Made by a program: the position numbers and the translations under genes. Source: Gemmatimonadota bacterium (lineage in GTDB: Bacteria > Gemmatimonadota > Gemmatimonadetes > Gemmatimonadales > GWC2-71-9). From it: DNA of 64,000 bases. The DNA lies in contig JBBIUN010000008.1 of the NCBI GenBank assembly GCA_037440225.1, positions 51,225-115,224 of the forward strand, read 5' to 3'. A model generated the notes under the pieces. The model worked only from the letters and a program-made list of their open reading frames with translations, searched no databases and was not told the origin of the DNA. Shown in pieces: positions 4,585 to 62,918 of the stretch; the stretch's first letter is position 1; every line of letters starts with the position of its first letter.

Positions 4585-5333
4585 ACATCGCCGTCTGCCT
4601 CAAGCGGGTGCCCGACACGGAAACCCGTATCAAGATCGCGCCCGATGGCCGCTCCATGGACGAGGCCGGCGTCAAGTTCGTCCTCAACCCCTACGACGAA
4701 TATGCGGTGGAGGAGGCCCTGCGCCGCAAGGAAGCCGCCGGGGGTGGCGAGGTGGTGGCGGTGGCCTTGGGCCCGGAGGCGGCCCAAGAAACCCTGCGCA
4801 CGGCGCTGGCCATGGGAGCGGACCGCGCCGTCTTGCTCAAGACCGACCAGCGGCCCGCCGATCCCCTGCCGGTGGCCCGAGCCCTGGCCGAGGAGCTGCG
4901 CGCCGGAGGCTACGATCTGATCCTCTTCGGGAAGCTGGCGGTGGACGACGGCGCCCAGGCCGTGGGGCCGATGGTGGCCGAGCTGCTGGGACTCCCGTGC
5001 GTGAGCGCGGTCTCGCATTGGGAGCCGCTGGAAGGCGGGGGCCGGGCCCGGAGGGAAATCGAGGGGGCGGTGGAGGTGGTCGAGGTCAAGCTCCCCGCCG
5101 TGCTCACCGTGGACAAGGGCTTGAACGAGCCGCGCTATCCGGCGCTCAAGGGCATCATGGCGGCAAAAAAGAAGCCTCTCGAGGTCAAGCCGGTCGCTCT
5201 CGATGCCGGAGGGCTGGAGATCGTGCAGTTGGCGTTGCCTCCGGAACGCAAGCCGGGCCGCATCCTGGGCGAGGGCCCCGAGGCGGTGCCGGCCCTGATC
5301 GAAGCCTTGCGAGTGGAAGCGAAGGTGCTGTGA
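4581..5333 (+). CDS. etfB: electron transfer flavoprotein beta subunit
   Basis: 'NIAVCLKRVPDTETRIKI...GVKFVLNPYDEYAVEEAL' is a typical EtfB N-terminus. Stop overlaps the etfA ATG (TGATG at 5331-5335). Confidence 0.9.
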   Translation: MNIAVCLKRVPDTETRIKIAPDGRSMDEAGVKFVLNPYDEYAVEEALRRKEAAGGGEVVAVALGPEAAQETLRTALAMGADRAVLLKTDQRPADPLPVARALAEELRAGGYDLILFGKLAVDDGAQAVGPMVAELLGLPCVSAVSHWEPLEGGGRARREIEGAVEVVEVKLPAVLTVDKGLNEPRYPALKGIMAAKKKPLEVKPVALDAGGLEIVQLALPPERKPGRILGEGPEAVPALIEALRVEAKVL

Positions 5334-6313
5334 TGGGAGGCCTGCTGGTCGTGCTGGAACAGCGGGACGGAGGGCTCAAGAAGGTGTCCTTCGAGGCGCT
5401 GGCCGCCGCGCGCTCGTTGGCCGACCGGCTGGCCGTGGGAGTGGACGCCATCGCCTTGGGCCCCACCAACCTGGACGCCACGCGGGCCGCGCAGTTCGGC
5501 GCCGACGAGGTGGTCATCATTGCCGACGATCGGGTGCGGCTCTACCAGCCTCACTGGTATGTGGGTGCGATCACCGAGCAGGCCAAGACCAAGGACTACC
5601 GGGCGATCGTGCTGCCGGCTACGGCCTTGGGCAAGGACTTGGGGCCCCGGCTGGCGGCCCGGCTGGGCTGGCCCCTGGCCCCCGACGTGACCGAAGTCTC
5701 AGCCGAGGGCTCGGAGCTTTTCGTGACCCGCCCGGTGTACGCGGGAAAAGCCCTCTTGCGGCTCCGGGTGGCTGCTCCGCGGGCCGTGGTTTCGGTACGC
5801 CCCAACAGCTTCACGCCGGTGGAGCAGGGCCGTACCTCGAGCCTGCGACACACCGTGTTGGGGCCGGAAGGCGCGGCTCCGGCGGTGCGCACGGTGGCGC
5901 TCGAAGCACCCGCCGAAGCCAAGCTGGACGTGGCTGAGGCGCCCATCGTGGTCAGCGGCGGGCGGGGCCTCAAGGAGCCGGCCAATTTCAAGCTGCTGGA
6001 AGATCTGGCCCGGGCCCTGGGCGGCGCTGCGGTGGGGGCCTCGCGCGCCGCGGTGGACGCCGGCTGGCGACCCCACGCCGATCAGGTAGGACAGACCGGC
6101 AAGACCGTAAGCCCGACCCTGTACTTTGCCATCGGCATTTCCGGCGCGATCCAGCACCTGGCGGGGATGCGCACCGCCAAGGTCATCGTGGCCATCAACA
6201 AGGACAAGGACGCCCCCATCTTCAAGGTGGCCGACTACGGCATCGTGGGCGACCTGTTCGAGATCGTGCCCCGCCTGACGGAAGAGATCACCAAGCTGCG
6301 CGCCGGAGCTTAG
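5333..6313 (+). CDS. etfA: electron transfer flavoprotein alpha subunit
   Basis: C-terminal FAD-binding region '[48 protein letters not shown]'. The 627-aa track ORF is a chimera with an out-of-frame upstream extension. Confidence 0.9.
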
Positions 6314-6316
6314 GCA

Positions 6317-8002
6317 ATGGCGCCGGCCGCTCCGGAGTCCCAGGCGCGCTTCCCCATGGTCCCCGCCGACTACCAGCCGCCGCTCCCGCTGGATCGGCTG
6401 GTGATCCAGGAGCCCGCCGGCTCGGATGCCATCGAGTTGGATGTGCTGTTCGTGGGCGGCGGCCCCGCCAGCCTGGCGGGCGCCATCGCCCTGGCCCAGC
6501 TCATCCGCCGGGACAACGAGGCAGGCGGCGGCCTGGGCGACGTGAGCATCGGCGTGCTGGAGAAGGGCGAGCGGCTGGGCGACCACTGTTTATCCGGCGC
6601 GGTGGTCAACCCGATCGCGTTTCGCGAGCTGTTTCCCGACCTCGGCGATCAGGACTTCCCGTTCGGCCCGCCGGTGGAGAGAGAGGCGGTATATCTCTTG
6701 ACCCCGCGCGGCCAGATACGCCTGCCGACGCCGCCCACGATGCGCAACCAGGGGTGCTACGTGGCATCGCTCTCCGAGATGGTCCGGTGGCTGGGCGAGC
6801 GGGCCGAAGCCCTGGGTGTCAACATCCTGCCCGGATACCCCGCCGGCGCGCTACTGGTCAATGGCCGCCGGGTCGTGGGCGTGCGAACCACCCCCAAGGG
6901 GTTGGATCGGGACGGCCAGCCGGGGCCAGCATACCAACCCTCGGCAGACGTCACCGCCAAAGTCACGGCGCTGGGCGAGGGGAGCCGCGGGATGCTGACC
7001 CAGGCGTATCTCGAATGGCAGGGCATTAGCTCGCCAAACCCCCAGATCTACGCGCTCGGCGTCAAGGAGCTGTGGGAGACCAAGCAGCCGCTCGATCGGG
7101 TGATCCACACCATGGGCTGGCCGCTGCCCGGATACGCCTTCGGTGGGAGCTTCATGTACCCGCTCGAGGCCAACCTCGTGGCCTTGGGACTGGTGGTGGG
7201 CTTGGACGCGCCCGACGCCGCCCTCGACGTCCACGGACTGCTCCAGCGCCTCAAGCTCCATCCGTTCGTCCGCCGCTACCTGGAAGGCGGCGAACTGATC
7301 GAGTGGGGTGCCAAGACCATTCCCGAGGGCGGCTACTACGCGCTGCCCGAGCGGCGCTACGGAGACGGGCTGGTCATCCTGGGCGATGCTGCAGGGTTCG
7401 TCAACGTTCCGGCGCTCAAGGGCATTCACTACGCCATGCAATCGGGCATCTTCGCGGCGCGGGCCATCTTCGAGGCGCTGAAGCGCAACGACCCCTCCTC
7501 CGCCACGCTCGCCGCCTACGACCGGCTGGTGGACGGCTCCGCCATTCGGCAAGACCTCTACCGCACCCGCAACATGCGGCTGGCCTTCAAGGACGGCCTC
7601 TACGTCGGGGCGCTCAAGGCCGGCCTCATGACCTTGACCCGCGGCCGGTTCCCCGGGCGGCGGATCGCCCTGCACGCAGACGCCCGGTCGCCGCGCACGC
7701 GCGCGACACCGGTCGCCTACACGCCCGACGGCAAACTCACGTTCAGCAAGCTGGACGCGGTCTTCCGCTCGGGAAACACGACCCGGGATACCATCCCCTC
7801 GCACCTGGTTCCGGGTGCCACGATCCCCAGGAACGTGGCCGAGCTGTATGCCAGCCTCTGTCCCGCAGGGGTGTACGAGTGGGTGGACGGGCGGCTCCGC
7901 ATCAACCCGCCGAACTGTGTGGACTGCAAGGCCACCGACGTTCTGGGCCCGCGCTGGACACCCCGCGAGGGGGGTAGCGGCCCCAAGTACCGCCGGATGT
8001 AG
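6317..8002 (+). CDS. electron transfer flavoprotein-ubiquinone oxidoreductase (ETF-QO)
   Basis: N-terminal FAD fold 'VLFVGGGPASLAGA'. C-terminal 4Fe-4S region 'CPAGVYEW...NPPNCVDCKATD' and 'W..PEGGSGP.Y..M' tail typical of ETF-QO. Confidence 0.9.
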   Translation: MAPAAPESQARFPMVPADYQPPLPLDRLVIQEPAGSDAIELDVLFVGGGPASLAGAIALAQLIRRDNEAGGGLGDVSIGVLEKGERLGDHCLSGAVVNPIAFRELFPDLGDQDFPFGPPVEREAVYLLTPRGQIRLPTPPTMRNQGCYVASLSEMVRWLGERAEALGVNILPGYPAGALLVNGRRVVGVRTTPKGLDRDGQPGPAYQPSADVTAKVTALGEGSRGMLTQAYLEWQGISSPNPQIYALGVKELWETKQPLDRVIHTMGWPLPGYAFGGSFMYPLEANLVALGLVVGLDAPDAALDVHGLLQRLKLHPFVRRYLEGGELIEWGAKTIPEGGYYALPERRYGDGLVILGDAAGFVNVPALKGIHYAMQSGIFAARAIFEALKRNDPSSATLAAYDRLVDGSAIRQDLYRTRNMRLAFKDGLYVGALKAGLMTLTRGRFPGRRIALHADARSPRTRATPVAYTPDGKLTFSKLDAVFRSGNTTRDTIPSHLVPGATIPRNVAELYASLCPAGVYEWVDGRLRINPPNCVDCKATDVLGPRWTPREGGSGPKYRRM

Positions 8003-17022: not shown

Positions 17023-18078
17023 GTGGGCCGCAAGCGCGCGAGTAGCCGGGTGCCGGGGCGGGGCGTCTCGGTGCCCGCGGCGCGCCGCCGGGCTGCGGCG
17101 GAACTCGCCCGCCTCTTGAAGCCGGGCATGCGTGTGGCGCTGACCACCCACGTCAATGCGGACGGCGACGGGGCGGGTTCGGCAGTGGCTCTCTGGCACC
17201 TGCTCACGGCGCGGGGTGTGCGGGCGGCCATCGCCAACCCCACGCCGTTTCCCGAGCGGTACGCCTTCCTCCTCCAGGGGAGCGAGCACGCCGACAAGTC
17301 CGCCGACGCGGTACGCCACCTGAGGCGGGCGGATGCCGTGGTGGTGCTGGACATCAGCGACGTGGGCAGGCTGGGTCAGCTCGGCGCCGTGGTGCAGGAG
17401 ACCGGTGTCCCGGTGGCTTGCGTGGATCACCACACCAGTGACGGCTCCCTGCCGCCGGGCCCCCGGCTGGTGGACGACCGGGCCAGCGCCACGGGCGAGC
17501 TGATCTACGATTTGGCGCGTTCGGTGGGCTGGACCCTGAGCCCCGAGGCGGCGCGCGCCTTGTACGTGGCCATTCTCACGGATACCGGCGGGTTCCGGTT
17601 CAGCAATACCTCCTCCCGGGCGCTCCAAGTCGCGGCCCACCTCTTGGCCCACGGCCTCGATCCGGAAGAGATCTACCGGGAGGTGTATGCCACGGCCTCC
17701 GAAGGCCGGGTGCGCCTCTTGGCCGAAGTGCTCGAGACGCTGGTGGTGGAACACGACCGCGGCTTGGCCTGGATGACCGTGCCCCCGGGCGCCCTGGAAC
17801 GACACGGGGTGGACGCCGAAGACCTCGAGGGCGTGGTGGAGTTCGCCCGTTCCATTCGCGGCATCCGGTTGGCCCTGCTGTTCCGGCTGCTGGCCAACGG
17901 CCGGGTCAAGGTCTCGTTCCGCTCGACCGGCGACGTGGACGTGGCCCAGCTGGCGTCGCAATTTGGCGGCGGGGGACACAAGAAGGCGGCCGGTGCCGCC
18001 CTGGGAGGCCCGCTGGCGGATGCCCAGGCCAGGGTCCTCGCCGCCGCGCGGGAATGGCTTTCGTCCCGGCGCGCGTGA
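17023..18078 (+). CDS. DHH-family phosphoesterase (NrnA-like oligoribonuclease/pAp phosphatase)
   Basis: 'HVNADGDGAGS', 'DHH' in 'CVDHHTS', and the DHHA1 motif 'GGGGHKKAAGA'. GTG 17023 is 8 nt after GGAGGA. Confidence 0.8.
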   Translation: MGRKRASSRVPGRGVSVPAARRRAAAELARLLKPGMRVALTTHVNADGDGAGSAVALWHLLTARGVRAAIANPTPFPERYAFLLQGSEHADKSADAVRHLRRADAVVVLDISDVGRLGQLGAVVQETGVPVACVDHHTSDGSLPPGPRLVDDRASATGELIYDLARSVGWTLSPEAARALYVAILTDTGGFRFSNTSSRALQVAAHLLAHGLDPEEIYREVYATASEGRVRLLAEVLETLVVEHDRGLAWMTVPPGALERHGVDAEDLEGVVEFARSIRGIRLALLFRLLANGRVKVSFRSTGDVDVAQLASQFGGGGHKKAAGAALGGPLADAQARVLAAAREWLSSRRA

Positions 18079-18181
18079 AGGCGCCGGCCGAGCAAGAGGC
18101 CAACCGGAACCGGGTGGCCCGGCGGGCCGCCGCCGGCGCAGCCTAGGCTCTTCTTACCCCGCCGCTTACATTGCTGGAACC

Positions 18182-19276
18182 ATGGCTGCCACGTTGGAAT
18201 CCCAGGTCGCCGCCGCTCTGTCCCACCTGCGGCACCCGCGCACGGGCGGGGATGTACTTTCGTCCGGGGCGGTGCAAGACCTGGAGATCGAGGAGGGAGG
18301 CCGGGTCTCGCTCAAGTTCCTGCTTTCGCGGGAGGATCCCGCGTCCCTGGTGCGCGAGGTCCGCAGAGCGCTGCAGGCGATTCCCGGCGTCAGCGAGGTG
18401 AAGATGGAAGTGGTCGAGCCGCCGGGCCGGGCGGCGCCGGCCGGGACCGTACCGGCCGCCGCCCCGCCCCACGCACCGGATGCCGCAGCCACCGGGCAGC
18501 TGCGCCACGTTCTCGCCGTATCCAGCGGAAAGGGGGGAGTCGGCAAGTCCACGGTGGCGGCCAATCTCGCGGCTGTCTGGGCGCGGCAGGGGTGCCGGGT
18601 GGGCATCATGGACGCCGACGTGTACGGGCCGAACATCCCCCGCATGTTCGGCGTGAACCAGAAGCCGCCGGTGCGAGACGGCAAGATCATCCCGCTGGAG
18701 CGCTTCGGCGTCAAGCTCATGTCCTTGGGCTTTCTGGTGGATCGCGATGCTCCCGCGATTTGGCGCGGGCCTATCGTGACCAAGATCATCCAGCAATTCC
18801 TCCACGACGTGGATTGGGGCGAGCTGGACTACTTGGTGGTGGATCTGCCGCCCGGTACCGGCGATGCCCAGCTCTCCTTGGCACAGGCGGTGCAGTTGGA
18901 CGGGGCGATCATCGTGACCACGCCCCAGGAAGTGGCCATCGGTGACGCCCTCCGCGGCGCCAAGATGTTCGAACGCGTGAGCGTGCCGGTCCTCGGCGTG
19001 GTGGAGAACATGAGCTATTTCGCCTGCCCCCACTGCGGGACCCGGACCAACATCTTCCTGGCCGATGGCGGCAGCCGCCTGGCCGGTGAACTGGGCGTTC
19101 CGCTGCTCGGTCAAGTGCCGCTCCAGGCCCGGATGGCCGACCTCGCCGACGCCGGGCAACCCATCGTGCTGGCTGAACCGGACTCGCCGGCGGCGAGCGC
19201 CTTGATAGCCGTGGCCCAGGAGGTGGAAGCGCGCGCCGGGGGCAAGAAAGTGCGCCTGCCCATTCTCACTGGCTGA
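18182..19276 (+). CDS. apbC: Mrp/ApbC-type iron-sulfur cluster carrier ATPase
   Basis: N-terminal DUF59-like domain, deviant Walker A 'SGKGGVGKST', 'CPHCG' cluster-binding motif. Start set at ATG 18182. Confidence 0.9.
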   Translation: MAATLESQVAAALSHLRHPRTGGDVLSSGAVQDLEIEEGGRVSLKFLLSREDPASLVREVRRALQAIPGVSEVKMEVVEPPGRAAPAGTVPAAAPPHAPDAAATGQLRHVLAVSSGKGGVGKSTVAANLAAVWARQGCRVGIMDADVYGPNIPRMFGVNQKPPVRDGKIIPLERFGVKLMSLGFLVDRDAPAIWRGPIVTKIIQQFLHDVDWGELDYLVVDLPPGTGDAQLSLAQAVQLDGAIIVTTPQEVAIGDALRGAKMFERVSVPVLGVVENMSYFACPHCGTRTNIFLADGGSRLAGELGVPLLGQVPLQARMADLADAGQPIVLAEPDSPAASALIAVAQEVEARAGGKKVRLPILTG

Positions 19277-51807: not shown

Positions 51808-52380
51808 GTGATCGTGCTGGCTTCCGCGTCGCCCCGGCGGCGGCAGCTCCTCGAGATGCTGGGGATTGCCCATCGGGTGGATGCCCCCGACGTACCCGAA
51901 GAACCGGAGCCGGGGGAGGAGCCGGAGGCCCTGGCAGTGCGTCTGGCCCGGGAAAAGGCCCTCCGGGTTTGGGCCCGGCATCCCCGCCTGCCGGTGTTGG
52001 GGGCCGACACCGTGGTCGTGCAGGGGAGTCAGCTGCTGGGCAAGCCCGCCTCGCCGGAGGATGCCGCCCGCATGCTCCGCCTGCTGAGCGGCCGGGAGCA
52101 CCGCGTGATCACGGCCGTGGCGCTGGTCCGAAACGGCGAGGTGCGGCATCGCTGCGATGTCACCCGCGTGTGGTTCCGCCCGCTCAGTGCCGCCCTGATC
52201 GCCGACTACGTCGCCACCGGCGAGCCGATGGACAAGGCCGGCGCCTACGGCGTGCAGGGCTACGGAGCGGTGCTGGTGGAACGGATCGAGGGCGACTTCT
52301 TCTCGGTGATGGGGCTGCCGGTCCGCTTGGTGGTGGAGCTGCTGGAAGAAGCCGGCCTGCCCTACCGCTTCACCCGATAG
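51808..52380 (+). CDS. maf: Maf-family nucleoside triphosphate pyrophosphatase
   Basis: 'LASASPRR..LL', 'GADTVV', 'LSGR.H.V.T', 'DKAGAYG.QG' motifs. Start codon uncertain; GTG 51808 chosen. Confidence 0.85.
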   Translation: MIVLASASPRRRQLLEMLGIAHRVDAPDVPEEPEPGEEPEALAVRLAREKALRVWARHPRLPVLGADTVVVQGSQLLGKPASPEDAARMLRLLSGREHRVITAVALVRNGEVRHRCDVTRVWFRPLSAALIADYVATGEPMDKAGAYGVQGYGAVLVERIEGDFFSVMGLPVRLVVELLEEAGLPYRFTR

Positions 52381-53984
52381 ACCGCCACCGCCTGGGCCTT
52401 GCCCTTGAGCTGCATGGGCTCCAGGGCTTCGACGTCGGGTGGCTGCTTCAAGCACCGATAGAACGGCTCGGAGACGATGATTTCACCCGGGCCCGCCTTG
52501 GAGCAGAGTCGCGAGGCGGTATTGACGGCATCGCCGATCACGGTGTACTCCAACCGGCGCTCGCTTCCGATGTTGCCCGCGAACACCTCCCCGAAATTGA
52601 TCCCGATCCCGATCTGTACCGGCTTGCGGCCCTGCTGAGTCCACTTGGCGTTGAGGTCGCCCAGCACCCGCTGCATGTCAATAGCCGCTCGCATCGCTCG
52701 GTCGGCGTCGTCTTCGTGGGGGATCGGCGCTCCCCAGATGGCCATGATGGCGTCGCCGATGAACTTGTCGAGCGTGCCGCCATGCTGGAAGATGATCTCC
52801 ACCATCTCGGTGAAGTACTCGGTGAGCAAGGTCGCGATCTCGTCCGGGCTCATGGTCTCCGACATCGGCGTGAATCCCCGGATGTCGCTGAAGAAGATGA
52901 CCACCGGCCGCTTGGAGCCCCCCAGCTGGACCGCGCCTTCCTGATTGGCGATCTGCTGGGCCAGATTGGGCGCGAAGTAGCGCTGGAAGTTGGACAGCAC
53001 CACGGCTTCCCGGCGTATGCGATCGGTGAGCTGGCTGTTCTCGATCGAGACCGCCGCGATGCCGCTGAAGGCGATCAGGAACTCCAGATCCTCGTCGCCG
53101 AAGGAGTGCGTGGCCGTGAGGTTGTCCACGTAGATGATCCCCAAGACCTTCCCCTCGCTCGAGATGAGCGGGGTGCACATGGCACTCCGGACGCTCTGCA
53201 TCAGGATGGACTTGCCCTTGAAGCGCTCGTCCGCGGCCGCGTTGTCCGTGAGGATCGCCAGCCGCTCGCTCACCGCGCGCCGGGCGATGGACTGCGGCAC
53301 GTGGCGGCTGCCGCCCGAGTCGCCCAACCGGTTCCGCGAAATGCGCGGCACCAGCTCCCCGGATGATTCCTCCACCATGAGGATGGACACCCGGTCCACG
53401 TTCATCACTTGGAAGGTGATGTCCACGATCTTCTGGAGCAGCTTGTCCACTTCCTGCTGCTTGGACAGTTCCTTGGAAATGTCCAAGAGCAGCGAGAGCT
53501 TCTTGGCCTGCCGTTCCTCCACCGACTCGCCCGGCACCTTGAGCTGGGTGCCGCCACTGGGCCGGCCCGCCACCTGGGCTTCGATCTTGGGCCCTGCTTC
53601 GACCGGCAGCTGCCGGACGATGGTCGCCTCGGGCGGGCGGGGGGCGAACCCGCCGGGCTCTGAGACCGGCTTCACGGCGGGCCGGGGCTCCGCCGGCGTG
53701 ACCTGGCGGACGCGAAAGGCGACCTTGCCAAAGGTCACCACGTCGCCGTCGCCCGCGGCGGACTGGGTGATCGGCGTGCCGTTCAGATAGGTACCGTTGC
53801 TGGATCCTAAGTCCTTGATCGAGACACTCCCGTTCGCCAGCAACAACTCGGCGTGGCGCCGCGACACCGTGGGATCGTAGATCGGCAGGTCGCTGGTGGC
53901 GGCCCGGCCTACTACCACGGCGCGGCCTTCGGGCAGCTCGAAGGTTTGATCGCCGGCAGTGCTGATCAACTTGAAGGCGGGCAC
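52362..53984 (-). CDS. FHA-GAF-class III adenylate/guanylate cyclase
   Basis: FHA 'VVGR....DL.I.D..VSRRHAEL......V.I.DLGS.NGT.LNG'. GAF middle region. Cyclase 'VIFFSDIRGFT', 'LDKFIGDAIMA.WGAP', 'IGI..GEV..GNIGS..R.EYTVIGD.VN.ASRL'. Confidence 0.85.
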   Translation of the reverse strand: MPAFKLISTAGDQTFELPEGRAVVVGRAATSDLPIYDPTVSRRHAELLLANGSVSIKDLGSSNGTYLNGTPITQSAAGDGDVVTFGKVAFRVRQVTPAEPRPAVKPVSEPGGFAPRPPEATIVRQLPVEAGPKIEAQVAGRPSGGTQLKVPGESVEERQAKKLSLLLDISKELSKQQEVDKLLQKIVDITFQVMNVDRVSILMVEESSGELVPRISRNRLGDSGGSRHVPQSIARRAVSERLAILTDNAAADERFKGKSILMQSVRSAMCTPLISSEGKVLGIIYVDNLTATHSFGDEDLEFLIAFSGIAAVSIENSQLTDRIRREAVVLSNFQRYFAPNLAQQIANQEGAVQLGGSKRPVVIFFSDIRGFTPMSETMSPDEIATLLTEYFTEMVEIIFQHGGTLDKFIGDAIMAIWGAPIPHEDDADRAMRAAIDMQRVLGDLNAKWTQQGRKPVQIGIGINFGEVFAGNIGSERRLEYTVIGDAVNTASRLCSKAGPGEIIVSEPFYRCLKQPPDVEALEPMQLKGKAQAVAVYRVKR

Positions 53985-54040
53985 GGGGTTCTCCTACCGC
54001 GCATAATATACCCGCCGCCCCGCGGAGCGGCAGAAGCGGC

Positions 54041-55543
54041 CTAGGCTCGGGAGGCGAGCGCCAGGGCCTGTAGCACCGCCCGGGCCTTGTTCTCGGTTTC
54101 CTCGAATTCGCGCGCCGGATCGCTGTCGGCCACGATGCCGGCGCCGGCCTGCACGTGCGCGCGCGAGCCCCGCAGGATGGCGCTCCGGAGGGCAATGGCT
54201 GTGTCCAGGCTCGCGGCCCCCCAGCCCAAGTACCCTACCGCCCCGGCGTAGGGCCCTCGCCGGGTGGGCTCCAGCTCGTCAATGATCTCCATGGCGCGAA
54301 TCTTGGGGGCGCCCGTCACCGTGCCCGCCGGAAAGCAGGCCCGCAGCACGTCGCCGGCGTCGAGCCCCGGCCGCAGCGTGCCCCGTACCTCGCTGACCAA
54401 GTGCTGCACGTGCGAGTAGCGCTCGATCACGCGGCTCTGCGTCACCTTGACGGTGCCGAACCGGGCCACCCGGCCCACGTCGTTGCGACCCAGGTCCACG
54501 AGCATGGCGTGTTCGGCCAGCTCCTTGGGATCAGCCAGCAGTTCCCTGGCCAGGCGCTCGTCCTCTTCCGGTGTGGCGCCGCGCGGGCGCGTGCCCGCGA
54601 TGGGCCGCACCAGCACTTCGCCCTCCTCCACCCGCACCAGCACCTCCGGGGAACTGCCCGCCAGCACCACGTCGTCCAAGGCGAGGAAATACAAATACGG
54701 CGCCGGGTTGAGCGTGCGGAGCGCGCGGTAGACCGTAAGCGGCCGGCCCTCGAAGGGCACGTCCTGGCGGCGCGACAGCACGGTCTGAAAGGTGTCTCCC
54801 GCGCGGATGTAGTCCTTGATGCGTTCGACGTCGCGCTCGAAATCGGCGCGGGGGTAGGGACTGTCCACCGGGAGCGGGGGGCCGACGTCCAGAGACAAGG
54901 GCTCGAGCGCCGGCGGCCGCCGCAACCGCTCCAGCAGCTCCTCGATCCGGCCCATGGCCGCCTGGTACGCCGCCCGCAAGGCGGCACGGTCGGCCCCGGG
55001 GCGCACCTGGGTATTGGCCACGATGGCAGCCCGGGCGAACGCGTTGTCAATGATCACCAGCGCGTCGGCCAGCATGAAGACCGCGTCCGGCAGGCCCAGG
55101 TCGTCCGGGGGGCCGGCGGGCAGGCGTTCGAAGGCTCGGACCACGTCGTAGCCCAGGTAGCCCACCGCGCCACCGGTAAAGCGGGGAAGCCCCGGGCTGG
55201 GAGCTGGCTTGAGGTCGCGGAGGCGGCGGGTGAGATCGGCCAGCGGGTCGCTGGCCGGTCCTATCGTGGTCCAACCCTCCTCGCTGGTCCAGCGCTCCAC
55301 TTGGCCGGCCCGGTAGCGCCACGCCTCGCGGGGCTCCGTGCCCAAGAAGGTGTAGCGGGCCCAGCGCTCGCCGCCCACCAGCGACTCCAACAAAAAAGCA
55401 AAGGGCCCTCGCGCGATGGCGGCGTAGGCGGTGACCGGCGTCAGCGTATCGCCCCCGAGTTCCCGTACCACCGGGACCATGCCGCCGGCTGCGGCGCGCG
55501 CGGCGTAGTCGGAAAAGTCGGTATCGCGGACCAAGGGGGTCAC
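54041..55543 (-). CDS. trpE: anthranilate synthase component I
   Basis: 'LLES', 'PYLYF', 'SPE.L', 'IAGTRPRG', 'LL.D.KE.AEH.MLVDL.RND', 'FPAGTV.GAPK.RAMEII.E.E...RG.Y.GAVGY'. GTG 55543 overlaps the upstream stop (GTGA). Confidence 0.92.
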   Translation of the reverse strand: MTPLVRDTDFSDYAARAAAGGMVPVVRELGGDTLTPVTAYAAIARGPFAFLLESLVGGERWARYTFLGTEPREAWRYRAGQVERWTSEEGWTTIGPASDPLADLTRRLRDLKPAPSPGLPRFTGGAVGYLGYDVVRAFERLPAGPPDDLGLPDAVFMLADALVIIDNAFARAAIVANTQVRPGADRAALRAAYQAAMGRIEELLERLRRPPALEPLSLDVGPPLPVDSPYPRADFERDVERIKDYIRAGDTFQTVLSRRQDVPFEGRPLTVYRALRTLNPAPYLYFLALDDVVLAGSSPEVLVRVEEGEVLVRPIAGTRPRGATPEEDERLARELLADPKELAEHAMLVDLGRNDVGRVARFGTVKVTQSRVIERYSHVQHLVSEVRGTLRPGLDAGDVLRACFPAGTVTGAPKIRAMEIIDELEPTRRGPYAGAVGYLGWGAASLDTAIALRSAILRGSRAHVQAGAGIVADSDPAREFEETENKARAVLQALALASRA

Positions 55544-56133
55544 TTCGGGGCCGCTGCTATGTAGGTCCCGGCCTCTTGGAGGCTGGCGCGAAGTTCGGTT
55601 CCCGCCGTCCCCGAGCCGCCCACGCTGGTCCAGCGGTCGAGGGCGCTTTCCCGCCAGACTTCCAAAGCCCGGGCATAGGCGGCGGCATCCGGATACCGGG
55701 TCGAGCCTAAGGCCACGCTGAGGTTGCCGTAGCGGGCGTACGAAAAGGTGAGCAGGGGCCGCCCCAGCGAGGCGAACCGCAGTCCCGTGGGGCTCAGTCG
55801 CACGCCGTACACCCCGGGTTCGGGGCTCACCGTGACCAGCACCGAATCGCTGAGCCCCAACACCCTGCCGTCCAGCGAGCCCAGAGAGCCGCTGGGAAAC
55901 TCCAAGCGCGCGAACAAGGTGTTGAACCCGTCGCTGTGGATCAGATTGCGGGTGGTGGCTCGGGCGTTGGAGACGTAGAAGCTGGTGCCACCCGGGGGCG
56001 GGGCGGTGGCTTGGAGCGGCAGGACCAGGAGATCGGACGTAGCCAGGCCGCCCGAGGGCACGGCCAGGTCTTGGCAGGCGGCGCTGGCGAAGAGCAGCGC
56101 GGCGCTTGTCGCACGCTGGAAGGCCCGTGATAT
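55540..56133 (-). CDS. putative lipoprotein (hypothetical); no canonical start codon
   Basis: Protein-like composition and a lipoprotein-type leader 'SRAFQRATSAALLFASAAC'. Translationally coupled to trpE. The best-fitting start is an ATA at 56133-56131. There is no in-frame ATG, GTG or TTG for more than 150 nt upstream. Confidence 0.5.
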   Translation of the reverse strand: MSRAFQRATSAALLFASAACQDLAVPSGGLATSDLLVLPLQATAPPPGGTSFYVSNARATTRNLIHSDGFNTLFARLEFPSGSLGSLDGRVLGLSDSVLVTVSPEPGVYGVRLSPTGLRFASLGRPLLTFSYARYGNLSVALGSTRYPDAAAYARALEVWRESALDRWTSVGGSGTAGTELRASLQEAGTYIAAAPK

Positions 56134-56142
56134 TGCCGGACG

Positions 56143-58173
56143 ATGCGGCGTGGGCTCTGGGTGCTGGTTCTCAGTCTCTCCCCCGCGGCGCTGGCCGCTC
56201 AGGCGTGGAACGATCCCGCCACCCTGGCGCTCCTCGCCCGCGCCGCGGGCCGGCGCGCGAGTGCGCTGGCCGAAGGACTCCGGGACTTCGAGGCGCGGGC
56301 GCACGGTTTGGTATTCTTCCTCGGGCAGTTGGGTGAGGGGCTCGAGGCACCACCCAAGTTGATCAAGGCCGACCAGCTGGCGCTGGAAGTTTACTGGCAG
56401 GCTCCGGGCCGCAGCAAGCAGCGCATCGTGGGCTGGCGCGACCGCATGGACCTGCCAGCCGACATCCAGTATCACCGCGACCACTTGGGCATCGTGATGA
56501 ACGGGTTCGGGGACCGCATCCGGCTGGGCGACGGCGACGAGGTGCAGGACGTGCCGCACCCCTTGGCCCCGGGCGCGGCTGAGTGGTACGACTACGCGCT
56601 CTCCGACTCGCTGATCATCGCGCTGCCCGAGCGGCGGGTGCGCGTCTACGAGGTCGAGGTCCGCCCCAAGGACCCGGCGGCGGCCCGCCTGGTGGGCCTG
56701 CTCTATCTCGATGCCGAGCAGGGCGATCTGGTGCGCATGCGGTTCCAGTTCACCCGCGCCGCCTACCGGGACGCGAGCCTGGAGGACATCACCGTGATGC
56801 TGGACAACGGGCTGTGGGAGGGCCGCTACTGGCTGCCGCGGCAGCAGGAGATCGAGATCCGGCGGCACACCACCTGGCTCGACTTGCCGGCCCGCGGCAT
56901 CATCCGGGCCCGGTGGGAGATCGGCGACTACCGCTTCAACCTGGGCTTGGACCCCAGCTTGTTCGCCGGTCCCGAGATCGTGGCGGCGCCTGCCGCAGAG
57001 CGGGCGCGCTATCCCTGGAGCGAGCCGCTGGACGCCGCGGTGACCCGCAGCGCGGGGCAGGATGTGCTCGACCTGGGCTCGGTGCGCAGGGCGGTGAGCG
57101 CCTTGGCCTCGCGCCGGCTGCTCTCGGGAAGGCCCGCGGCAGGCGTCGGTGCCGGCTCGCTCAGCGAGCTGGTACACGTCAACCGGGTGGAAGGGTTGGC
57201 CTTGGGGCTGGGGACGGTGGTGCGGCCTGGCGGCGGGGTGCTGGAGGCCCGCCTCTCGGGCTCCTTCGGTACCAGCGACCGCCGGTTCAAAGCGAGGCTC
57301 CAGGTGCGGCGCCGGGCGAGCTGGGGCGACGTCACGCTCGAGGCGGGCCGCGAGGTGCGGGACGTGGCGGACGAGCCGCTCATCGCGCCGATACTCAACT
57401 CCCTGGCGGCCCAAGAGCTGGGCAGGGATTACGGCGATTACGTGCTGCGGGATGGCGCAAGCCTGAGACTGAGGAAGCCTGGGCCGCGTTGGGCGTGGGA
57501 GGTCGCCCTGGGCGCCGAACGATCGCAGAGCGTCGCGGTGCGCGCCTCTCCCGTGACCGGCAGCTACCGGGTCAATCCGCCGCTGGGCGCGGGCGCCTAT
57601 CGGCTGCTCCGGGTTTCCCTCCGGCGGGTGGCCCAAGCCCTGCCGCAAGCATTTGAGACCAGGACCCGCCTCGACCTCGAGGCGGGCTCGGGTGACAGCA
57701 CCGGCTACGTGCGCCTCCTGGGAGCAGGCGGTTTCGAGGCGGCCGCAGGGGGCACCCGGCTTCACGTGCTGGCCTGGGCCGGGTGGGCGTCGCAGGAGGT
57801 GCGGCGGGATCGCGCCCTCCTGTGGGGTGGGCGGGGCGCAGTGGGCTGCGCCGGCGGCCTCCGCTGCGCCGGCCGGTACGGAGCGGGCGGGGGCCTCGAG
57901 TGGCGGGTTTCGGCTCCGGTCCCGGAACTTTCGCTCGGCGCCTTCGTCTCGACCGGGAGGCGCGCGATGGTCGCCCCCTTCGTCCGGGCGGCCTGGCTGG
58001 AGGGAGCGGTGCCGGGATCTCCCTGGAGCGGCACGGATGGGGTGCGCCCGGTGGCCGGCCTGGGGCTCGAGTGGCCGCATCAGTTGTTGCGGGTGGAAGT
58101 GGGCCTCGACCTGAGGACTGGGCAGCGGGCGGTCACGGTGGACTTGAACCGCAGCCTCTGGCCCCTGCTGTGA
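56143..58173 (+). CDS. outer-membrane protein: N-terminal periplasmic domain plus Omp85/surface-antigen-like C-terminal barrel
   Basis: Signal peptide 'LWVLVLSLSPAALAAQA'. The middle region has 'NRVEGLALGLG'. The C-terminus 'GLGLEW....LRVEVG.DL' resembles D15/Omp85-type barrels. The long minus-strand track ORF across it is antisense. Confidence 0.6.
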   Translation: MRRGLWVLVLSLSPAALAAQAWNDPATLALLARAAGRRASALAEGLRDFEARAHGLVFFLGQLGEGLEAPPKLIKADQLALEVYWQAPGRSKQRIVGWRDRMDLPADIQYHRDHLGIVMNGFGDRIRLGDGDEVQDVPHPLAPGAAEWYDYALSDSLIIALPERRVRVYEVEVRPKDPAAARLVGLLYLDAEQGDLVRMRFQFTRAAYRDASLEDITVMLDNGLWEGRYWLPRQQEIEIRRHTTWLDLPARGIIRARWEIGDYRFNLGLDPSLFAGPEIVAAPAAERARYPWSEPLDAAVTRSAGQDVLDLGSVRRAVSALASRRLLSGRPAAGVGAGSLSELVHVNRVEGLALGLGTVVRPGGGVLEARLSGSFGTSDRRFKARLQVRRRASWGDVTLEAGREVRDVADEPLIAPILNSLAAQELGRDYGDYVLRDGASLRLRKPGPRWAWEVALGAERSQSVAVRASPVTGSYRVNPPLGAGAYRLLRVSLRRVAQALPQAFETRTRLDLEAGSGDSTGYVRLLGAGGFEAAAGGTRLHVLAWAGWASQEVRRDRALLWGGRGAVGCAGGLRCAGRYGAGGGLEWRVSAPVPELSLGAFVSTGRRAMVAPFVRAAWLEGAVPGSPWSGTDGVRPVAGLGLEWPHQLLRVEVGLDLRTGQRAVTVDLNRSLWPLL

Positions 58174-58215
58174 TCCGGGACGAGCCAGGCCCGAAAGGGG
58201 CAGCCAGACTGCCTG

Positions 58216-60576
58216 ATGGCCAAGACCCCGGCCGGGTGGTGTCCCGCGCTGGCCGGCGGCGTTTGGCTCAATTGGGCACGTGGCTTATCTTCTTGTGGAG
58301 AGGGTCCCCTCGGTACCTCGTTTAAGGAGGTGCGTGTAGGCCGCTTCCAGGACGAATGGCTCAGCGCCACGGTCGAAGAACTCTTGGGGCGTGAGGCGCT
58401 GGAAGAACTCCGGAGCAGCGAAGCTGCCAAGGAGACGCTGTGGGAGACCGTGGTCTCGCAGGGCAAGGCCACCGACGAGCAGCTCCTCGGCAGCCTGGCC
58501 ACGCGGTTCCGCCTGAAGCTGGCGGACATCTCTCAGAGCGAGAAGCAAGCCCGGGAGCTGGTCTCCGAGGCGGTGGCTCGCAAGTACCACATCCTGCCGC
58601 TCCGGATCACGGATTCGTACCTGGAAATCGCCACGGCCAACCCCTTCGATCTGGACTGCGAGAAAACGCTGGCCTTTGCCACCGGGCGCGAAGTGCGGAT
58701 GCAGCTCGCCTCGCCCCGGAAGATTCAGGAGAAGATTGACGAGTTCTACCGGCCCGAGAACGTAATCGGCCAGCTCCTGGAGGGCATGGGGTCGGATGCG
58801 GAGGTGACGCAGCTCGAGGACCAGCCTGAACTGGACGAGATTGCCGTATCGGCGGAACAAGCGTCCCAGCGCCCCGTCGTCCGGCTGGTGGACTTGATTC
58901 TCTCCGAGGGCATTCTCTCGCGGGCCAGCGACATCCATGTGGAGCCGGAAGAGGGCGGCGTGGCGGTGCGGTACCGCATAGACGGGGTGCTGCGCCAGGT
59001 GATGAAGATCCCGCGAGCCGCCGGCCTCCCCTTGATTTCCCGGATGAAGATCATCTCCTCCTTGGATATCGCCGACCGGATGCGCCCGCAGGACGGCCGC
59101 GCGCGGGTGGCGGTGAACGGGGTTCCGGTGGACCTCCGGGTCTCCACCCTGCCGGCGCAGCTGGGCGAGAAGGTGGTCATCCGGATTCTCGACTCCAGCC
59201 GCACCGTCCTGTCGCTCGACTCGCTGGGCTTGAACCCCGAGGAGGCCGCGGCGATCAAGGCCCTGTTGGACAACCGGGATGGGATCATTCTGGTCACCGG
59301 TCCCACGGGCTCGGGCAAGACCACTACCTTGTATTCCGCCCTGCGGCATGTGCAGAGCGAGGGCGTCAACATTGTCACGGTGGAAGATCCCGTCGAGTAT
59401 CGCATCCAGGGCATCGTGCAGGTGCAGGTGAACGAGAAGGCGGGGCTCACCTTCGCGGCGGCCCTGCGCTCGATCTTGCGCCAGGATCCCGACGTGGTGC
59501 TGGTGGGCGAGATTCGCGACAAGGAGACCGCCCAGATCGCCGTGCAAGCCTCGCTCACCGGGCACCTGGTGCTTTCGACCTTGCACACCAACGATGCCCC
59601 CAACGCAGTGACCCGGCTCATTGACATCGGCATCGAAGGGTTCAAGATCGCTTCGGCGCTGCGCGGCGTGGTGGCCCAACGGCTCATGCGGCGGCTCTGT
59701 CCCACCTGCAAGGAAGTCTGGGTGGAGTCCATCCCTCCCAAACTGCAGCGCTGGATTCCCAAGGATACGCCGCTCTACCGGGCGGTGGGCTGCCCCGAAT
59801 GCGCCATGACCGGCTACCGGGGCCGGTTCTCGATCGTCGAAGTCCTGGCGGTGACGCCGGAGGTCGAGCGGCGGATCGGCCAGAGCGAGACGGCCGACCG
59901 GATCGCGGACGCGGCCCGGGCGGCCGGCATGAAGTCGCTGTGGGACAGCGGGCTGTCTCACGTGCTGCGAGGCGAGTCCACGGTTGACGAGCTGCTGCGG
60001 GTGGTGGACATGCCCCAGGACGACCTGGTGCCGTCAGCGGGGACGGCGGAGCGCGCCCCAGGCAAGCGCGCCTCGCCGCCGGGGATGGCGGCGGTCAAAG
60101 AGCGCGCCTCCGGGCCGCAGCCCTGGCCCGTCGTCGCGGATTTCGAGCTGCTGGACAAGCCCGAACATGCCGAGCGCCCACCGGTGCAAGCCAAGGTGCT
60201 GCTGGTAGACGACGAGGACATGCTCCGCAAGGTGATGAGGGACCTGCTCGAGCGCGAAGGCTACGTGGTCGTGGAAGCGCGCGACGGCATCGAGGCGCTG
60301 GACCAGGTGGACCGCCACGGTCCCGACATCGTGGTGCTGGATCTCAACCTCCCTGGGCTGGACGGCTACGGTGTGCTCTCCCACCTCAGGTCCCGACCCG
60401 CTACGCAGCACCTGCCGGTCGTGGTTCTCACGGCTCAAGGGGATGAAGAGAACGAGGTGCGGGTCTTCGAACACGGCGCGGATGACTTCTTGAGCAAACC
60501 CTTCCGGGCGCGGGCCTTGTCGGCACGACTGGCCGCCGTCCTGGGGCGGGCCCGGGGCCGTCAGGCAAGGGTCTAG
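58216..60576 (+). CDS. GspE/PilB-family secretion ATPase fused to a C-terminal response-regulator receiver domain
   Basis: T2SSE_N-like N-domain. Walker A 'GPTGSGKTTT', Asp box 'VTVEDPVEY', Walker B 'PDVVLVGEIRD', His box 'GHLVLSTLHTN', tetracysteine 'CPTC...CPEC'. REC (nt 60193-60540): 'LLVDDED', 'VVLDLNLPGLDG', 'VVVLTA', 'SKPF'. Start uncertain (ATG 58216 or GTG 58330). Confidence 0.85.
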   Translation: MAKTPAGWCPALAGGVWLNWARGLSSCGEGPLGTSFKEVRVGRFQDEWLSATVEELLGREALEELRSSEAAKETLWETVVSQGKATDEQLLGSLATRFRLKLADISQSEKQARELVSEAVARKYHILPLRITDSYLEIATANPFDLDCEKTLAFATGREVRMQLASPRKIQEKIDEFYRPENVIGQLLEGMGSDAEVTQLEDQPELDEIAVSAEQASQRPVVRLVDLILSEGILSRASDIHVEPEEGGVAVRYRIDGVLRQVMKIPRAAGLPLISRMKIISSLDIADRMRPQDGRARVAVNGVPVDLRVSTLPAQLGEKVVIRILDSSRTVLSLDSLGLNPEEAAAIKALLDNRDGIILVTGPTGSGKTTTLYSALRHVQSEGVNIVTVEDPVEYRIQGIVQVQVNEKAGLTFAAALRSILRQDPDVVLVGEIRDKETAQIAVQASLTGHLVLSTLHTNDAPNAVTRLIDIGIEGFKIASALRGVVAQRLMRRLCPTCKEVWVESIPPKLQRWIPKDTPLYRAVGCPECAMTGYRGRFSIVEVLAVTPEVERRIGQSETADRIADAARAAGMKSLWDSGLSHVLRGESTVDELLRVVDMPQDDLVPSAGTAERAPGKRASPPGMAAVKERASGPQPWPVVADFELLDKPEHAERPPVQAKVLLVDDEDMLRKVMRDLLEREGYVVVEARDGIEALDQVDRHGPDIVVLDLNLPGLDGYGVLSHLRSRPATQHLPVVVLTAQGDEENEVRVFEHGADDFLSKPFRARALSARLAAVLGRARGRQARV

Positions 60577-62918
60577 CCGGACTGCCGGCCGAGGTGTCTC
60601 CCGTGACCCGTCTCCCCCGCCGCCGGGTCTTGCAGCAGTTCGGCGACCGCGGCTCGAAGCTGCCGCGCATTGACCGGCTTGCGCAGGTAGCGAAAGCCCA
60701 GCTCCTCGAGCCAACTCTCTGTCTCGGGACGCACGTCCGCCGGCATGAAGATGGTGCGCGCCCGGAGATCGGGCCGCTGGCGGGCCAGCGCGTCGCCGAA
60801 GACCTCGGTGGCTGAGACCGGCTCGCGCGGATCGGCGATCACCACGTCATAGGCGCCCCCCTCCAAGAGCTTGAGAGCGTGGGGGCCGTCCCGCGCGGGC
60901 TCCACCAGATGCCCATCGGCGGAAAACAGCGCGGTGATCATCCGCTGGACGGCGGGATCGCCGTCCAGCAAGAGCACCTGGAGGCCGGCCCTCGCCACGG
61001 GCCCGCGCGGCCCAGCCGGGTACGTGCCGGAGATCCGATCTCCCGGCCGCACCTCGGCGATCCCACCGGCCAGGGGGAGCTGGGCGATGAAGTGCGCCCC
61101 GCCTCCGGGGGCCCGCTCGACGCGCAGCGTCCCGCCGTGCCGCTCGATGATGCTGTACGAGATAGCCAGCCCGAGACCGGTTCCCTGGCCCGGTTCTTTG
61201 GTGGTGAAGAACGGGGTGAAGATCTGACTCACCAGTTCCTCCGGCACGCCGGGCCCGGTGTCCTCGACCTCGAGAAAAGCGCGGTCGGCTTGCGCCGCGG
61301 TCCGCACCGTGATCCGGCGGGGCCGCTCGGGAGGATTCTGGGCGACGGCCTGCACTGCATTGGTGAGCAAGTTGACCACCACCTGCTGGAGCTGCATCCG
61401 GTCGGCGCGCACAGTGACGGGCTCGGCCGACAGCTCGGAGCGCAGCTCCACCTGCTGCAGCCGCAGCTCGTACTCGAGCAGCAGGGCGGTTCGCCGCGCC
61501 ACGTCGGTCAGGTCTACCAGCGTGATCTCTGCCGGTCCCTGCCGGGCGAAGGTGAGCAGGTTGCGGACGATCCCGCTGGCCCGTTCGGCCTGCTCGTAGA
61601 TGATCTTGAGGTGTTCCTTGGTTCGGGGCGTCGGCTGAGGCTGCTCCAGCAACAATTCGGCCAAGCCCGCTATCGAGGTCAGCGGGTTGTTGAGTTCGTG
61701 GGCCACGCCGGAAACCAGTTGGCCCACCGCCGCCATCTTCTCGTGCTGGATCATCTGGGCTTCGAAGGCGCGCTGCTCGGTGACGTCCTCGATGAGGGCT
61801 ACGCTCCAGCCCGCCGACTCGGTCCCCTGCATGGGGGCGGCACTGATCCTGAGGATCCGGCGCAACCGCTCGGAGTGCTGGGTCAGCGGGGCCAGCCGCT
61901 CACCCCGGCCCACTGCCTGCAACAGACCTGCCAGGCTGCTCGCTCGCCCGAACAGCTCCTCGGCCAAGCCAGCGCCGATCACGGCGGGCAGCGGCCGTCC
62001 CAAAAGCTCCGCGAGCGCCCGGTTGGCCCGCCGGATGCGGCCCTCCCCGTCCACTACGGCGATGCCGTCCGCCAGGGCGTCGAAGGTGCTTTCCCACTGC
62101 ACCTTGCCCAGACGGACTAAGTCGAACAGTCGCGCATTGGTCAGCACCGCGGCCGCATGGGCGGCCACCGTGGAGAGCAGCCGCAGGTGATCCGGCCCGA
62201 AGGCCTTCGCGGGATCCGCCGCGACGATGGCGCCCGCAGCGGCACCGCGGGCCCGAAGCGGCGCGATGGCGGCCCGGCGAACGTCGAGCCCGGGCCATAG
62301 CGCAGCTGCCGCAGCCGGCTCCACGACCTCGAGCTTCTGCTGGTTGATCGCGAACGCGATGAGACCCGCTTCCGCTTCCTGCACCTCCTGGCCGGCCAGT
62401 GGTGCGAGACTCCCCTCGGCGCCGGCCACGCGGAGCCGGTCGCCGGTTTCCTCCCGGAGCACGACCATCGCCCCGGTCGCGTCGGAGAACCGCACCAGAT
62501 AGCGGGCGATCTGCTCCGCGATCCGCTCGGGATCCAGTGACTCCGAGAGCAGATAGGTAATCTCCTGCAGCAAGAACAGCTCGCGGAGCCGCCCGGCCAG
62601 TTCCGCCTTGGCGCGGGCCAACTCGGCGGCCGCGTGCGCCCGGGACCAGCGGGAGCCGGCCCAGTAGGCGCCAACCCCCGCCAGGGCGGCGATCAAAAGC
62701 ACCAGAGCAGGACTCAGGTTCACGGGCACAAGATGCGCTACGGGATGGGTTGCCGGAAGCAGGGCGAGCTGCTGTTCGCTTTTCTCCGACTGACTCGATG
62801 AGTCGTCTGCTAAGGGAGGCGTTGCGAGAAGCAGGGCCCGCGCCGGCAGGCTGATGAGCCGCAGCGGATGGTAACGAGACCGCTTGACCCAAACAAACGG
62901 GATAGCTACATTCGGCAT
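60573..62918 (-). CDS. membrane sensor histidine kinase (GAF-PAS-HisKA-HATPase) with divergent C-terminal receiver-like domain
   Basis: One TM helix, then a GAF-like region and a PAS domain ('WESTFDALADGIAVVD'). H-box 'SGVAHELNNPLTSI', N-box 'VVNLLTNA', G-boxes 'EDTGPGV' and 'GTGLGL'. C-terminal 'VLLLDGD...DVVIAD...LRKP'. Start uncertain (ATG 62918, or GTG near 62728). Confidence 0.85.
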   Translation of the reverse strand: MPNVAIPFVWVKRSRYHPLRLISLPARALLLATPPLADDSSSQSEKSEQQLALLPATHPVAHLVPVNLSPALVLLIAALAGVGAYWAGSRWSRAHAAAELARAKAELAGRLRELFLLQEITYLLSESLDPERIAEQIARYLVRFSDATGAMVVLREETGDRLRVAGAEGSLAPLAGQEVQEAEAGLIAFAINQQKLEVVEPAAAAALWPGLDVRRAAIAPLRARGAAAGAIVAADPAKAFGPDHLRLLSTVAAHAAAVLTNARLFDLVRLGKVQWESTFDALADGIAVVDGEGRIRRANRALAELLGRPLPAVIGAGLAEELFGRASSLAGLLQAVGRGERLAPLTQHSERLRRILRISAAPMQGTESAGWSVALIEDVTEQRAFEAQMIQHEKMAAVGQLVSGVAHELNNPLTSIAGLAELLLEQPQPTPRTKEHLKIIYEQAERASGIVRNLLTFARQGPAEITLVDLTDVARRTALLLEYELRLQQVELRSELSAEPVTVRADRMQLQQVVVNLLTNAVQAVAQNPPERPRRITVRTAAQADRAFLEVEDTGPGVPEELVSQIFTPFFTTKEPGQGTGLGLAISYSIIERHGGTLRVERAPGGGAHFIAQLPLAGGIAEVRPGDRISGTYPAGPRGPVARAGLQVLLLDGDPAVQRMITALFSADGHLVEPARDGPHALKLLEGGAYDVVIADPREPVSATEVFGDALARQRPDLRARTIFMPADVRPETESWLEELGFRYLRKPVNARQLRAAVAELLQDPAAGETGHGRHLGRQSG

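Follow-up and report, generated by a model that had tools for sequence, protein, structure and literature searches.

The window analyzed here is a stretch of 64,000 nucleotides, which comes from a Gemmatimonadales bacterium. Near its end lies a gene for a PilB/GspE-class ATPase that carries a receiver (REC) domain at its C-terminus (ATPase-REC; see the table). With modest confidence, we favor the interpretation that its product is a phosphorylation-gated PilB-class extension motor. The motor would serve a type IV filament machine whose genes lie at another site, and the adjacent hybrid histidine kinase would be its likely input.

The domains of the ATPase-REC protein were recognized with high scores. 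Pfam assigned the T2SSE family at 449 bits (gathering cut-off 24.9), with a full-length match to the profile (1-370). In the translation, we read the Walker A motif GPTGSGKT (nt 59299-59322), the Asp box VTVEDPVEY, the Walker B motif DPDVVLVGEIRD (nt 59485-59520), the His box TGHLVLSTLHTND (nt 59557-59595) and the tetracysteine zinc site CPTC...CPEC (nt 59698-59802; C495, C498, C526 and C529). Response_reg scored 112.3 bits (cut-off 30.2), and the characteristic residues of a receiver were all in place: DD665/666, D709 (nt 60340-60342), T739 and K761. An earlier note made from the letters of the window (the sequence-only reading) had described a complete ATPase core, a canonical C-terminal receiver and about 60 low-complexity residues between them, and we agree on all three. 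It did not mention the MshEN domain, which we found at 60 bits (cut-off 23.1); the match covers the C-terminal subdomain of MshEN. Here and below, domain residue numbers refer to the 786-amino-acid open reading frame and AlphaFold2 numbers to the 748-amino-acid form.

Table. Features of the ATPase-REC gene, its neighbors and related loci
Feature	Position	Strand	Details
PilB/GspE-class ATPase with C-terminal receiver	58330..60576	+	748 aa from probable start GTG 58330
N-terminal four-helix subdomain, MshEN_N-like	58354..58509	+	helical over residues 9-60 in the 748-aa AlphaFold2 model, predicted local distance difference test (pLDDT) 86-91
MshEN (T2SSE_N1), PF05157	58513..58758	+	residues 100-181, Pfam E 2.3e-16
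T2SSE ATPase core (N2 and C-terminal domain, CTD), PF00437	58855..60000	+	residues 214-595, Pfam E 1e-134
Disordered low-complexity linker, ~60 residues	60004..60186	+	pLDDT ~32; length and sequence vary among homologues
Receiver (REC), PF00072	60196..60531	+	residues 661-772, Pfam E 2e-32; pLDDT ~90
Convergent hybrid histidine kinase	60573..62918	-	one transmembrane segment, GAF-PAS-HisKA-HATPase and a weak atypical REC (Pfam)
DUF5686 protein with signal peptide and Omp85-type (BamA/TamA-like) barrel	56143..58173	+	676 aa; weak Pfam match, AlphaFold2, Foldseek
FHA-GAF-adenylate/guanylate cyclase	52362..53984	-	Pfam; in the block in 8/8 Gemmatimonadota loci
Stand-alone Nudix gene, Gemmatimonadota locus L004	L004:12353-12817		
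Stand-alone Nudix gene, Gemmatimonadota locus L005	L005:12261-12725		
Stand-alone Nudix gene, Gemmatimonadota locus L088	L088:9217-9696		

The AlphaFold2 model of the 748-amino-acid form (mean pLDDT 79, predicted template modeling score 0.47) gave the same series of domains: the four-helix N-terminal subdomain, the alpha/beta MshEN_C part, N2, the catalytic CTD and the receiver. Alternating strands and helices in the receiver made up a (beta-alpha)5 fold. The linker (residues 565-617) was modeled as disordered and was flanked by confident domains, and no fixed packing of the receiver against the ATPase was predicted. A family-wide comparison of the linkers revealed no consensus.

Among solved structures, the top sequence matches were PilB (5zfr and 5TSG, the latter from Geobacter metallireducens; E 1e-121 over residues 28-597), followed by GspE (4pht, 1e-113) and PilT (1e-35). 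By these similarities the protein clearly falls in the extension-type ATPase class. The Walker A and B motifs, the Asp and His boxes, the arginine fingers and the four cysteines were invariant in 45 members of the family sharing 35-56% identity. We predict a hexameric motor.

The fusion itself had to be distinguished from an artefact. The open reading frame was mechanically called from ATG 58216 (58216-60576, plus strand, 786 amino acids), and the sequence-only reading had taken the same start. The N-termini of homologues, however, fall at residues 30-43 of this frame, and in an independent contig 1 nt is inserted after 58320, upstream of GTG 58330. Because the homologues begin later and a coding region would not tolerate such an insertion, ATG 58216 is an unlikely start, and we replaced it by GTG 58330, which is probably the true one. 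The same contig, 3.6 kb long and from an unrelated subsurface metagenome, is ~95% identical to the window, covers 58239-60700 and keeps the domain junction in frame. It differs from the window by substitutions and by two listed indels only, the 1-nt insertion just mentioned and a 3-nt in-frame indel at 60184/60185, in the linker. The sequence-only reading had itself raised the possibility of a mis-assembly or frameshift, and this contig speaks against both.

The same architecture (MshEN, T2SSE and Response_reg) recurred in over 200 clusters built at 90% identity, including all 120 of the best 120 clusters, which are 73-100% identical to the query. These 120 originate from NCBI, JGI, ENA and Logan assemblies, and those with a taxon name were all assigned to Gemmatimonadetes or Gemmatimonadales. 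A profile search with 45 diverse members listed 120 clusters, again all with this architecture and down to 60% identity in Gemmatimonadaceae; Gemmatimonadales dominated the list, the distant members carried little taxonomy, and looking up the clusters added few names. The G+C content at third codon positions (GC3) was 0.86 over the entire open reading frame, in a window of ~70% G+C, which also argues against an artefact, and the invariant catalytic residues argue against a decaying pseudogene. As the independent contig crosses the junction in frame and many assemblies share the architecture, an origin of the fusion in assembly, frameshift, gene calling or gene decay is hardly conceivable. By the same comparisons, the fusion is a genuine conserved gene of Gemmatimonadota. 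Within Gemmatimonadales, the identity of the ATPase-REC protein is 73-95%, and that of the Omp85-type protein encoded upstream is 49-95%, mostly 50-67%. At the level of protein identity, strong purifying selection is shown for the ATPase-REC gene.

The receiver is conserved together with the ATPase. Among the 45 members compared above, D666 was found in 43, D709 in 40, T739 in 40 (with Ser in three more) and K761 in 41, so that the five residues D665, D666, D709, T739 and K761 were each retained in 82-96% of the members (37-43 of 45). The stop region of the convergent hybrid kinase overlaps that of the ATPase-REC gene by 4 nt. We compared eight Gemmatimonadota loci (the window, L001, L002/L003, L004, L005, L086, L087 and L088). 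A convergent GAF-PAS hybrid kinase was present downstream in five of them; it occupies the corresponding place in L001, L086 and L087 and lies two genes off in L088. Kinase genes were also observed near fused genes of other phyla: in an Omnitrophota locus (L007), a PAS kinase begins 3 nt downstream of the fused gene, and in an Acidobacteria locus (L073), a hybrid kinase is two genes away. We infer that the convergent hybrid kinase is the best candidate in this genome for the cognate kinase. The sequence-only reading had proposed direct phosphorylation control of the motor by fusion. The conserved receiver residues and the recurrent kinase neighbors are in line with this proposal, and from them we infer the control itself.

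The hybrid kinase has a REC domain of its own (residues 648-758), which scored 25.7 bits, below the Pfam cut-off of 30.2. In this domain, DGD replaces DD, and the position usually taken by Thr or Ser has neither. It may be a pseudo-receiver instead of a phosphorelay step.

We also examined the MshEN domain for the motif that binds cyclic di-GMP (c-di-GMP). In MshE, the c-di-GMP signature consists of two tandem 24-residue motifs, RLGxx(L/V/I)(L/V/I)xxG(L/V/I)(L/V/I)xxxxLxxxLxxQ (Wang et al. 2016, PMC5013675). A relaxed form of this 24-residue motif was matched by none of 120 family members. One half-motif remains, 'sLWetvV..g.atDEq.L..L.tRF', in which three signature residues (Arg, first Gly and Gln) are missing. 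Judged by its motif, the c-di-GMP site of the MshEN domain is degenerate, and we rejected active c-di-GMP input through MshEN on the same grounds. Because the c-di-GMP signature is absent, it seems that the receiver took over as the built-in regulatory input.

The gene is remote from the components of pilus and secretion machines. Pfam scans covered window positions 144-46806 and five genes spanning 52362-62918, and the interval of 46.7-52.4 kb was read by synteny with related loci, where it corresponds to GlmM, GlmS, Dtd and Maf. The genes found in positions 144-46806 all had housekeeping, efflux or metabolic functions. No gene for T2SSF, a pilin, PilM/N/O/Q, a secretin or a prepilin peptidase was found in the 64-kb window, and the same context analysis revealed no gspC-M genes at the locus. 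The sequence-only reading had stated that no platform, pilin, peptidase or secretin gene lies nearby; this could be extended to the window as a whole. The fused gene is thus detached from pilus and secretion genes at this locus, and in 10 related loci with the fusion such genes were likewise absent over 6 kb. The term 'orphan' of the sequence-only reading is appropriate for the window and the related fused loci, whereas a genome-wide sense would go beyond that scope.

As a control, the neighbors of 86 loci (75 unfused and 11 fused) were clustered within 6 kb and the recurrent clusters were named by Pfam. A T2SSF platform gene was present at 57 of the 75 unfused loci, a pilin gene at 26, PilM at 18 and a secretin gene at 16. 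None of the four was present at any of the 11 fused loci. The contrast in platform genes is significant (Fisher P = 1.4e-6; P = 0.0014 with each fused lineage entered a single time). Context was taken from the loci of homologues, as a look-up of the protein of the window found no record.

Several observations weigh against the interpretation of the protein as a pilus extension motor. Such steady detachment across phyla would be unusual for a dedicated pilus motor. The kinase neighbor is absent from three of the eight Gemmatimonadota loci. G. aurantiaca has two MshEN proteins (Wang et al. 2016, PMC5013675), which bears on the possibility of a second PilB. Both NCBIfam scores fell below the equivalog cut-offs (GspE, TIGR02533: 564 bits against 630.25; PilB, TIGR02538: 532.3 bits against 675.65), and the protein is an equivalog of neither PilB nor GspE. 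Finally, a neighbor-joining tree of ATPase cores grouped context-linked PilB and GspE together and left the fused ATPases outside. The exact bipartition between fused and context-linked ATPases had no bootstrap support, although the best-matching clade reached a Jaccard index of 0.93, and we therefore took the tree as a tendency only. A clade of the Gemmatimonadota REC-fused and Nudix-fused ATPases received 97% bootstrap support.

From the detachment and the tree, it might be argued that the protein is not a pilus or secretion motor at all. The detached, C-terminally fused ATPases would then be a separate old subfamily with a signaling output on another target; a Nudix hydrolase or an Omp85-like envelope protein might be the partner, or the ATPase might be a signaling protein in its own right. 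We regard this main rival as unlikely. The unsupported split in the tree speaks against it, and so does the ATPase itself: its N1-N2-CTD layout is complete, as in extension motors, it retains their zinc site and arginine fingers, and nothing points to relaxed constraint. Pilus motors encoded apart from the other pilus genes do exist, for example PilF of Thermus, which further counts against a function outside pili.

A second alternative retains a secretion function: instead of extending pili, the protein might power type II secretion as GspE, with the rest of that system encoded at another site. Its only advantage is that the NCBIfam model of GspE scored slightly above that of PilB. Neither score reached its cut-off, the search of PDB sequences slightly favored PilB, and the tree placed the protein with neither group. 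In addition, the machine evidence in published work on Gemmatimonadota covers only type IV pili and Flp/Tad genes. We consider the GspE alternative improbable. Type IV pilus genes have been reported in Gemmatimonadota from every environment but marine (PMC10581226) and in G. groenlandica, and in a published survey of the phylum the per-genome frequency of PilM was about equal to that of ribosomal proteins. Given these published occurrences of type IV pilus genes in the phylum, the partner machine of the proposed extension motor is probably encoded elsewhere, not missing.

The family extends far beyond the phylum. We obtained 18,941 representative proteins at 50% identity (E <= 1e-30). Among the best 150 of them, 113 had the order (N-)ATPase-REC and were 35-57% identical to the query. 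Judged by domain content, ATPases of this class with a C-terminal REC are widespread and occur in metagenome-assembled genomes (MAGs) or other sequences of Gemmatimonadota, Omnitrophota, Acidobacteriota, Deltaproteobacteria and Actinomycetota. The scan of species genomes was a sample with at least 599 candidates, and this sample contained no Gemmatimonadota genome. True fused genes in it were those of a Deltaproteobacteria MAG (L006), an Omnitrophota genome (L007), Frankiaceae/Mycobacteriales MAGs (L008 and L009) and an Acidobacteria genome (L073). Pfam confirmed all of these but L006, for which the evidence is phmmer domain matches. Three further candidates (L010, L011 and L015) were dropped, as they proved to be split genes or unfused despite full-length matches in the scan table.

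The neighbors of the fused genes differ among phyla. MgtE_N-CBS, DUF1003 and Mrp genes were found in L008 and L009, and aconitase, DsbD and the hybrid kinase in L073. In these two Actinomycetota MAGs (L008, region 1842-7295; L009, region 12-5457), the fused gene lies between an MgtE_N-CBS/DUF1003 pair and an Mrp/ApbC-type P-loop gene. An Mrp-type gene is also present in the window, but it is 40 kb away (17777-19276).

Receivers are not the only modules at the C-terminus of these ATPases, and this diversity is a further point for the alternative of an output outside pili. The nearest REC-less relatives (P0133, P0152 and P0211; 47-59% identity) have the architecture MshEN-T2SSE-NUDIX. The Nudix domain of these fusions shares 48-60% identity with the orthologous stand-alone Nudix proteins encoded directly after the ATPase-REC gene in L004, L005 and L088, where the gene codes for 154-159 amino acids; these are three of the eight Gemmatimonadota loci. 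L088 has both the hybrid kinase and the Nudix gene, and the latter overlaps the ATPase gene by 4 nt. No Nudix homologue was found in the window. The Nudix fusion and the adjacent Nudix gene suggest a link of the Rosetta-stone type between motor ATPase and Nudix hydrolase, which would also suit a non-pilus role.

Other additions observed at the C-terminus were PAS-GGDEF (P0242, a diguanylate cyclase on a PilB-like motor) and REC-TPR (P0179). P0159 and P0135 were among the carriers of yet others, namely a double zinc ribbon-REC with a ~750-residue tail and three successive receivers. About 14 of the best 150 representatives were ~1000 amino acids long and had one MshEN followed by two complete T2SSE cores in tandem (for example, P0130, P0131, P0136, P0138, P0139, P0142, P0150, P0153, P0166, P0167 and P0175). 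Such a tandem protein would amount to two PilB-like motor units joined covalently into a dimer.

The eight Gemmatimonadota loci share the gene order FHA-GAF-cyclase (minus strand), TrpE (minus), a DUF5686 protein of 675-700 amino acids (plus) and PilB-REC (plus). The FHA-GAF-cyclase gene lies downstream of trpE, on the strand opposite to ATPase-REC. The DUF5686 protein is predicted to be of Omp85 type, and its gene directly precedes ATPase-REC in all eight loci, which might again be taken in favor of a partner outside the pilus. However, this adjacency may be meaningless. The Omp85-like gene is absent from the fused loci of other phyla, and adjacency is weak evidence for a shared function here because the region is one of housekeeping synteny, which runs from GlmS, Dtd, Maf and TrpE to EngB, ClpX, ClpP and Tig downstream.

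The upstream protein was modeled by AlphaFold2 at pLDDT 85. In Foldseek searches, its C-terminal half matched BamA (8xnb, 1e-8) and TamA (4n74, 4e-7), and then FhaC and Sam50. We therefore rejected the idea that the gene encodes a secretin, as its barrel is of the Omp85 type. Its N-terminal part is a beta-rich domain with no evident POTRA. All named homologues in a search of this family belong to Gemmatimonadota and are annotated merely as hypothetical. Two long antisense open reading frames that overlap the real genes, 55540-58080 (minus strand, 846 amino acids) and 58285-59961 (minus strand, 558 amino acids), were rejected by GC3-based calling; they result from the high G+C content and are not genes. 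Around the ATPase-REC gene, scans for promoters and terminators remained at background level, and Rfam and tRNA scans of the window detected nothing. The sequencing runs searched contained related strains only, which shared no more than 15% of words, and none of the runs found was of RNA.

In the literature searched, we found no description of a C-terminal receiver fusion and no experimental study of any family member, and receiver fusions go unmentioned in a 2024 review of PilB regulators (PMC11656802). The architectures REC-MshEN-T2SSE, GAF-MshEN-T2SSE and MshEN-T2SSE-cNMPbind are listed by Wang et al. (2016, PMC5013675); MshEN-T2SSE-REC is not. Automated annotation already tags family members with both ATPase and receiver domains. 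The sequence-only reading could tie the fusion to no characterized system. This was correct in that none of the papers searched describes the C-terminal form, but the family is large and the N-terminal REC form was catalogued in 2016. By the searches above, the gene is not a rarity; it belongs to a large family from several phyla that is already sequenced but uncharacterized.

Comparison with known systems showed what is particular to this protein. It shares with PilB (for example, 5TSG, and 3JC8 from Myxococcus xanthus) the N1 (MshEN)-N2-CTD layout, the Walker motifs, the Asp and His boxes and the tetracysteine zinc site; it differs in its C-terminal receiver, in a score below the equivalog cut-off and in having no pilT, pilC or pilM alongside. 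GspE/EpsE (Vibrio; 1P9R, 4KSR and 4PHT) belongs to the same ATPase class and gave the top NCBIfam score, whereas the present protein falls below the GspE cut-off, has no gspC-M nearby and carries an added receiver. MshE-type c-di-GMP ATPases (PMC5013675) also have MshEN with an N-terminal helical subdomain, and thus a motor with built-in regulatory input. Here the tandem 24-residue motifs are absent, and the input is a receiver at the opposite end of the protein.

The REC-MshEN-T2SSE protein Gmet_3473 of Geobacter metallireducens (PMC5013675, Supplementary Table 4) combines a receiver with the same ATPase class and is catalogued but uncharacterized. Its receiver is N-terminal, before MshEN, whereas the present one is C-terminal on a long disordered tether. 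Two-component control of the pilus extension motor is represented by PilG/PilH, the PATAN-REC regulators of Synechocystis and DrdR of Xanthomonas (PMC11656802). The Synechocystis PATAN-REC regulators (10.1101/2021.06.11.447907) and Xanthomonas DrdR (PMC13507683) reportedly act on PilB in trans, which is a precedent for the proposed control. All of these are separate proteins that bind or localize the motor; in the present protein the connection is covalent, which would give one receiver per hexamer subunit.

We suggest the following mechanism for the proposed phosphorylation-gated motor. A hexameric motor of the PilB/GspE extension class would double as a response regulator. Its MshEN-type domain would have lost the residues that bind c-di-GMP, and the C-terminal receiver on a disordered tether of ~55 residues would replace that input. 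A histidine kinase, for which the convergent membrane-anchored GAF-PAS hybrid kinase is the best candidate, would phosphorylate Asp709. Phosphorylated Asp709 might then switch ATPase activity, hexamer formation or docking to the membrane platform. The motor would drive a type IV filament machine encoded at another genomic site, most likely type IVa pili, which reportedly occur commonly in Gemmatimonadota.

A more speculative extension concerns the whole set of ATPases with C-terminal REC, Nudix, PAS-GGDEF or REC-TPR modules. They could constitute an old multi-phylum subfamily that quit the pilus and secretion machines and became ATP-driven output modules in two-component and nucleotide signaling. 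In Gemmatimonadota, the target might involve the co-inherited Nudix hydrolase and the Omp85-like protein. We consider this scenario rather doubtful.

How bacteria time the extension of type IV pili, or the firing of related secretion machines, is under active study. The known controls are second messengers, such as c-di-GMP acting on MshEN, or adaptors and receivers that are proteins of their own. If true, a motor with a built-in receiver would link a sensor kinase to a machine by the shortest possible wiring, and each hexamer would have six phosphorylation sites. The family, which is large and distributed over several phyla, comes from abundant soil and sediment bacteria, and it might offer a clean system for studying the phosphorylation gating of a PilB-type motor. 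If the detached ATPases do not serve pili, they would represent a new use of this motor fold.

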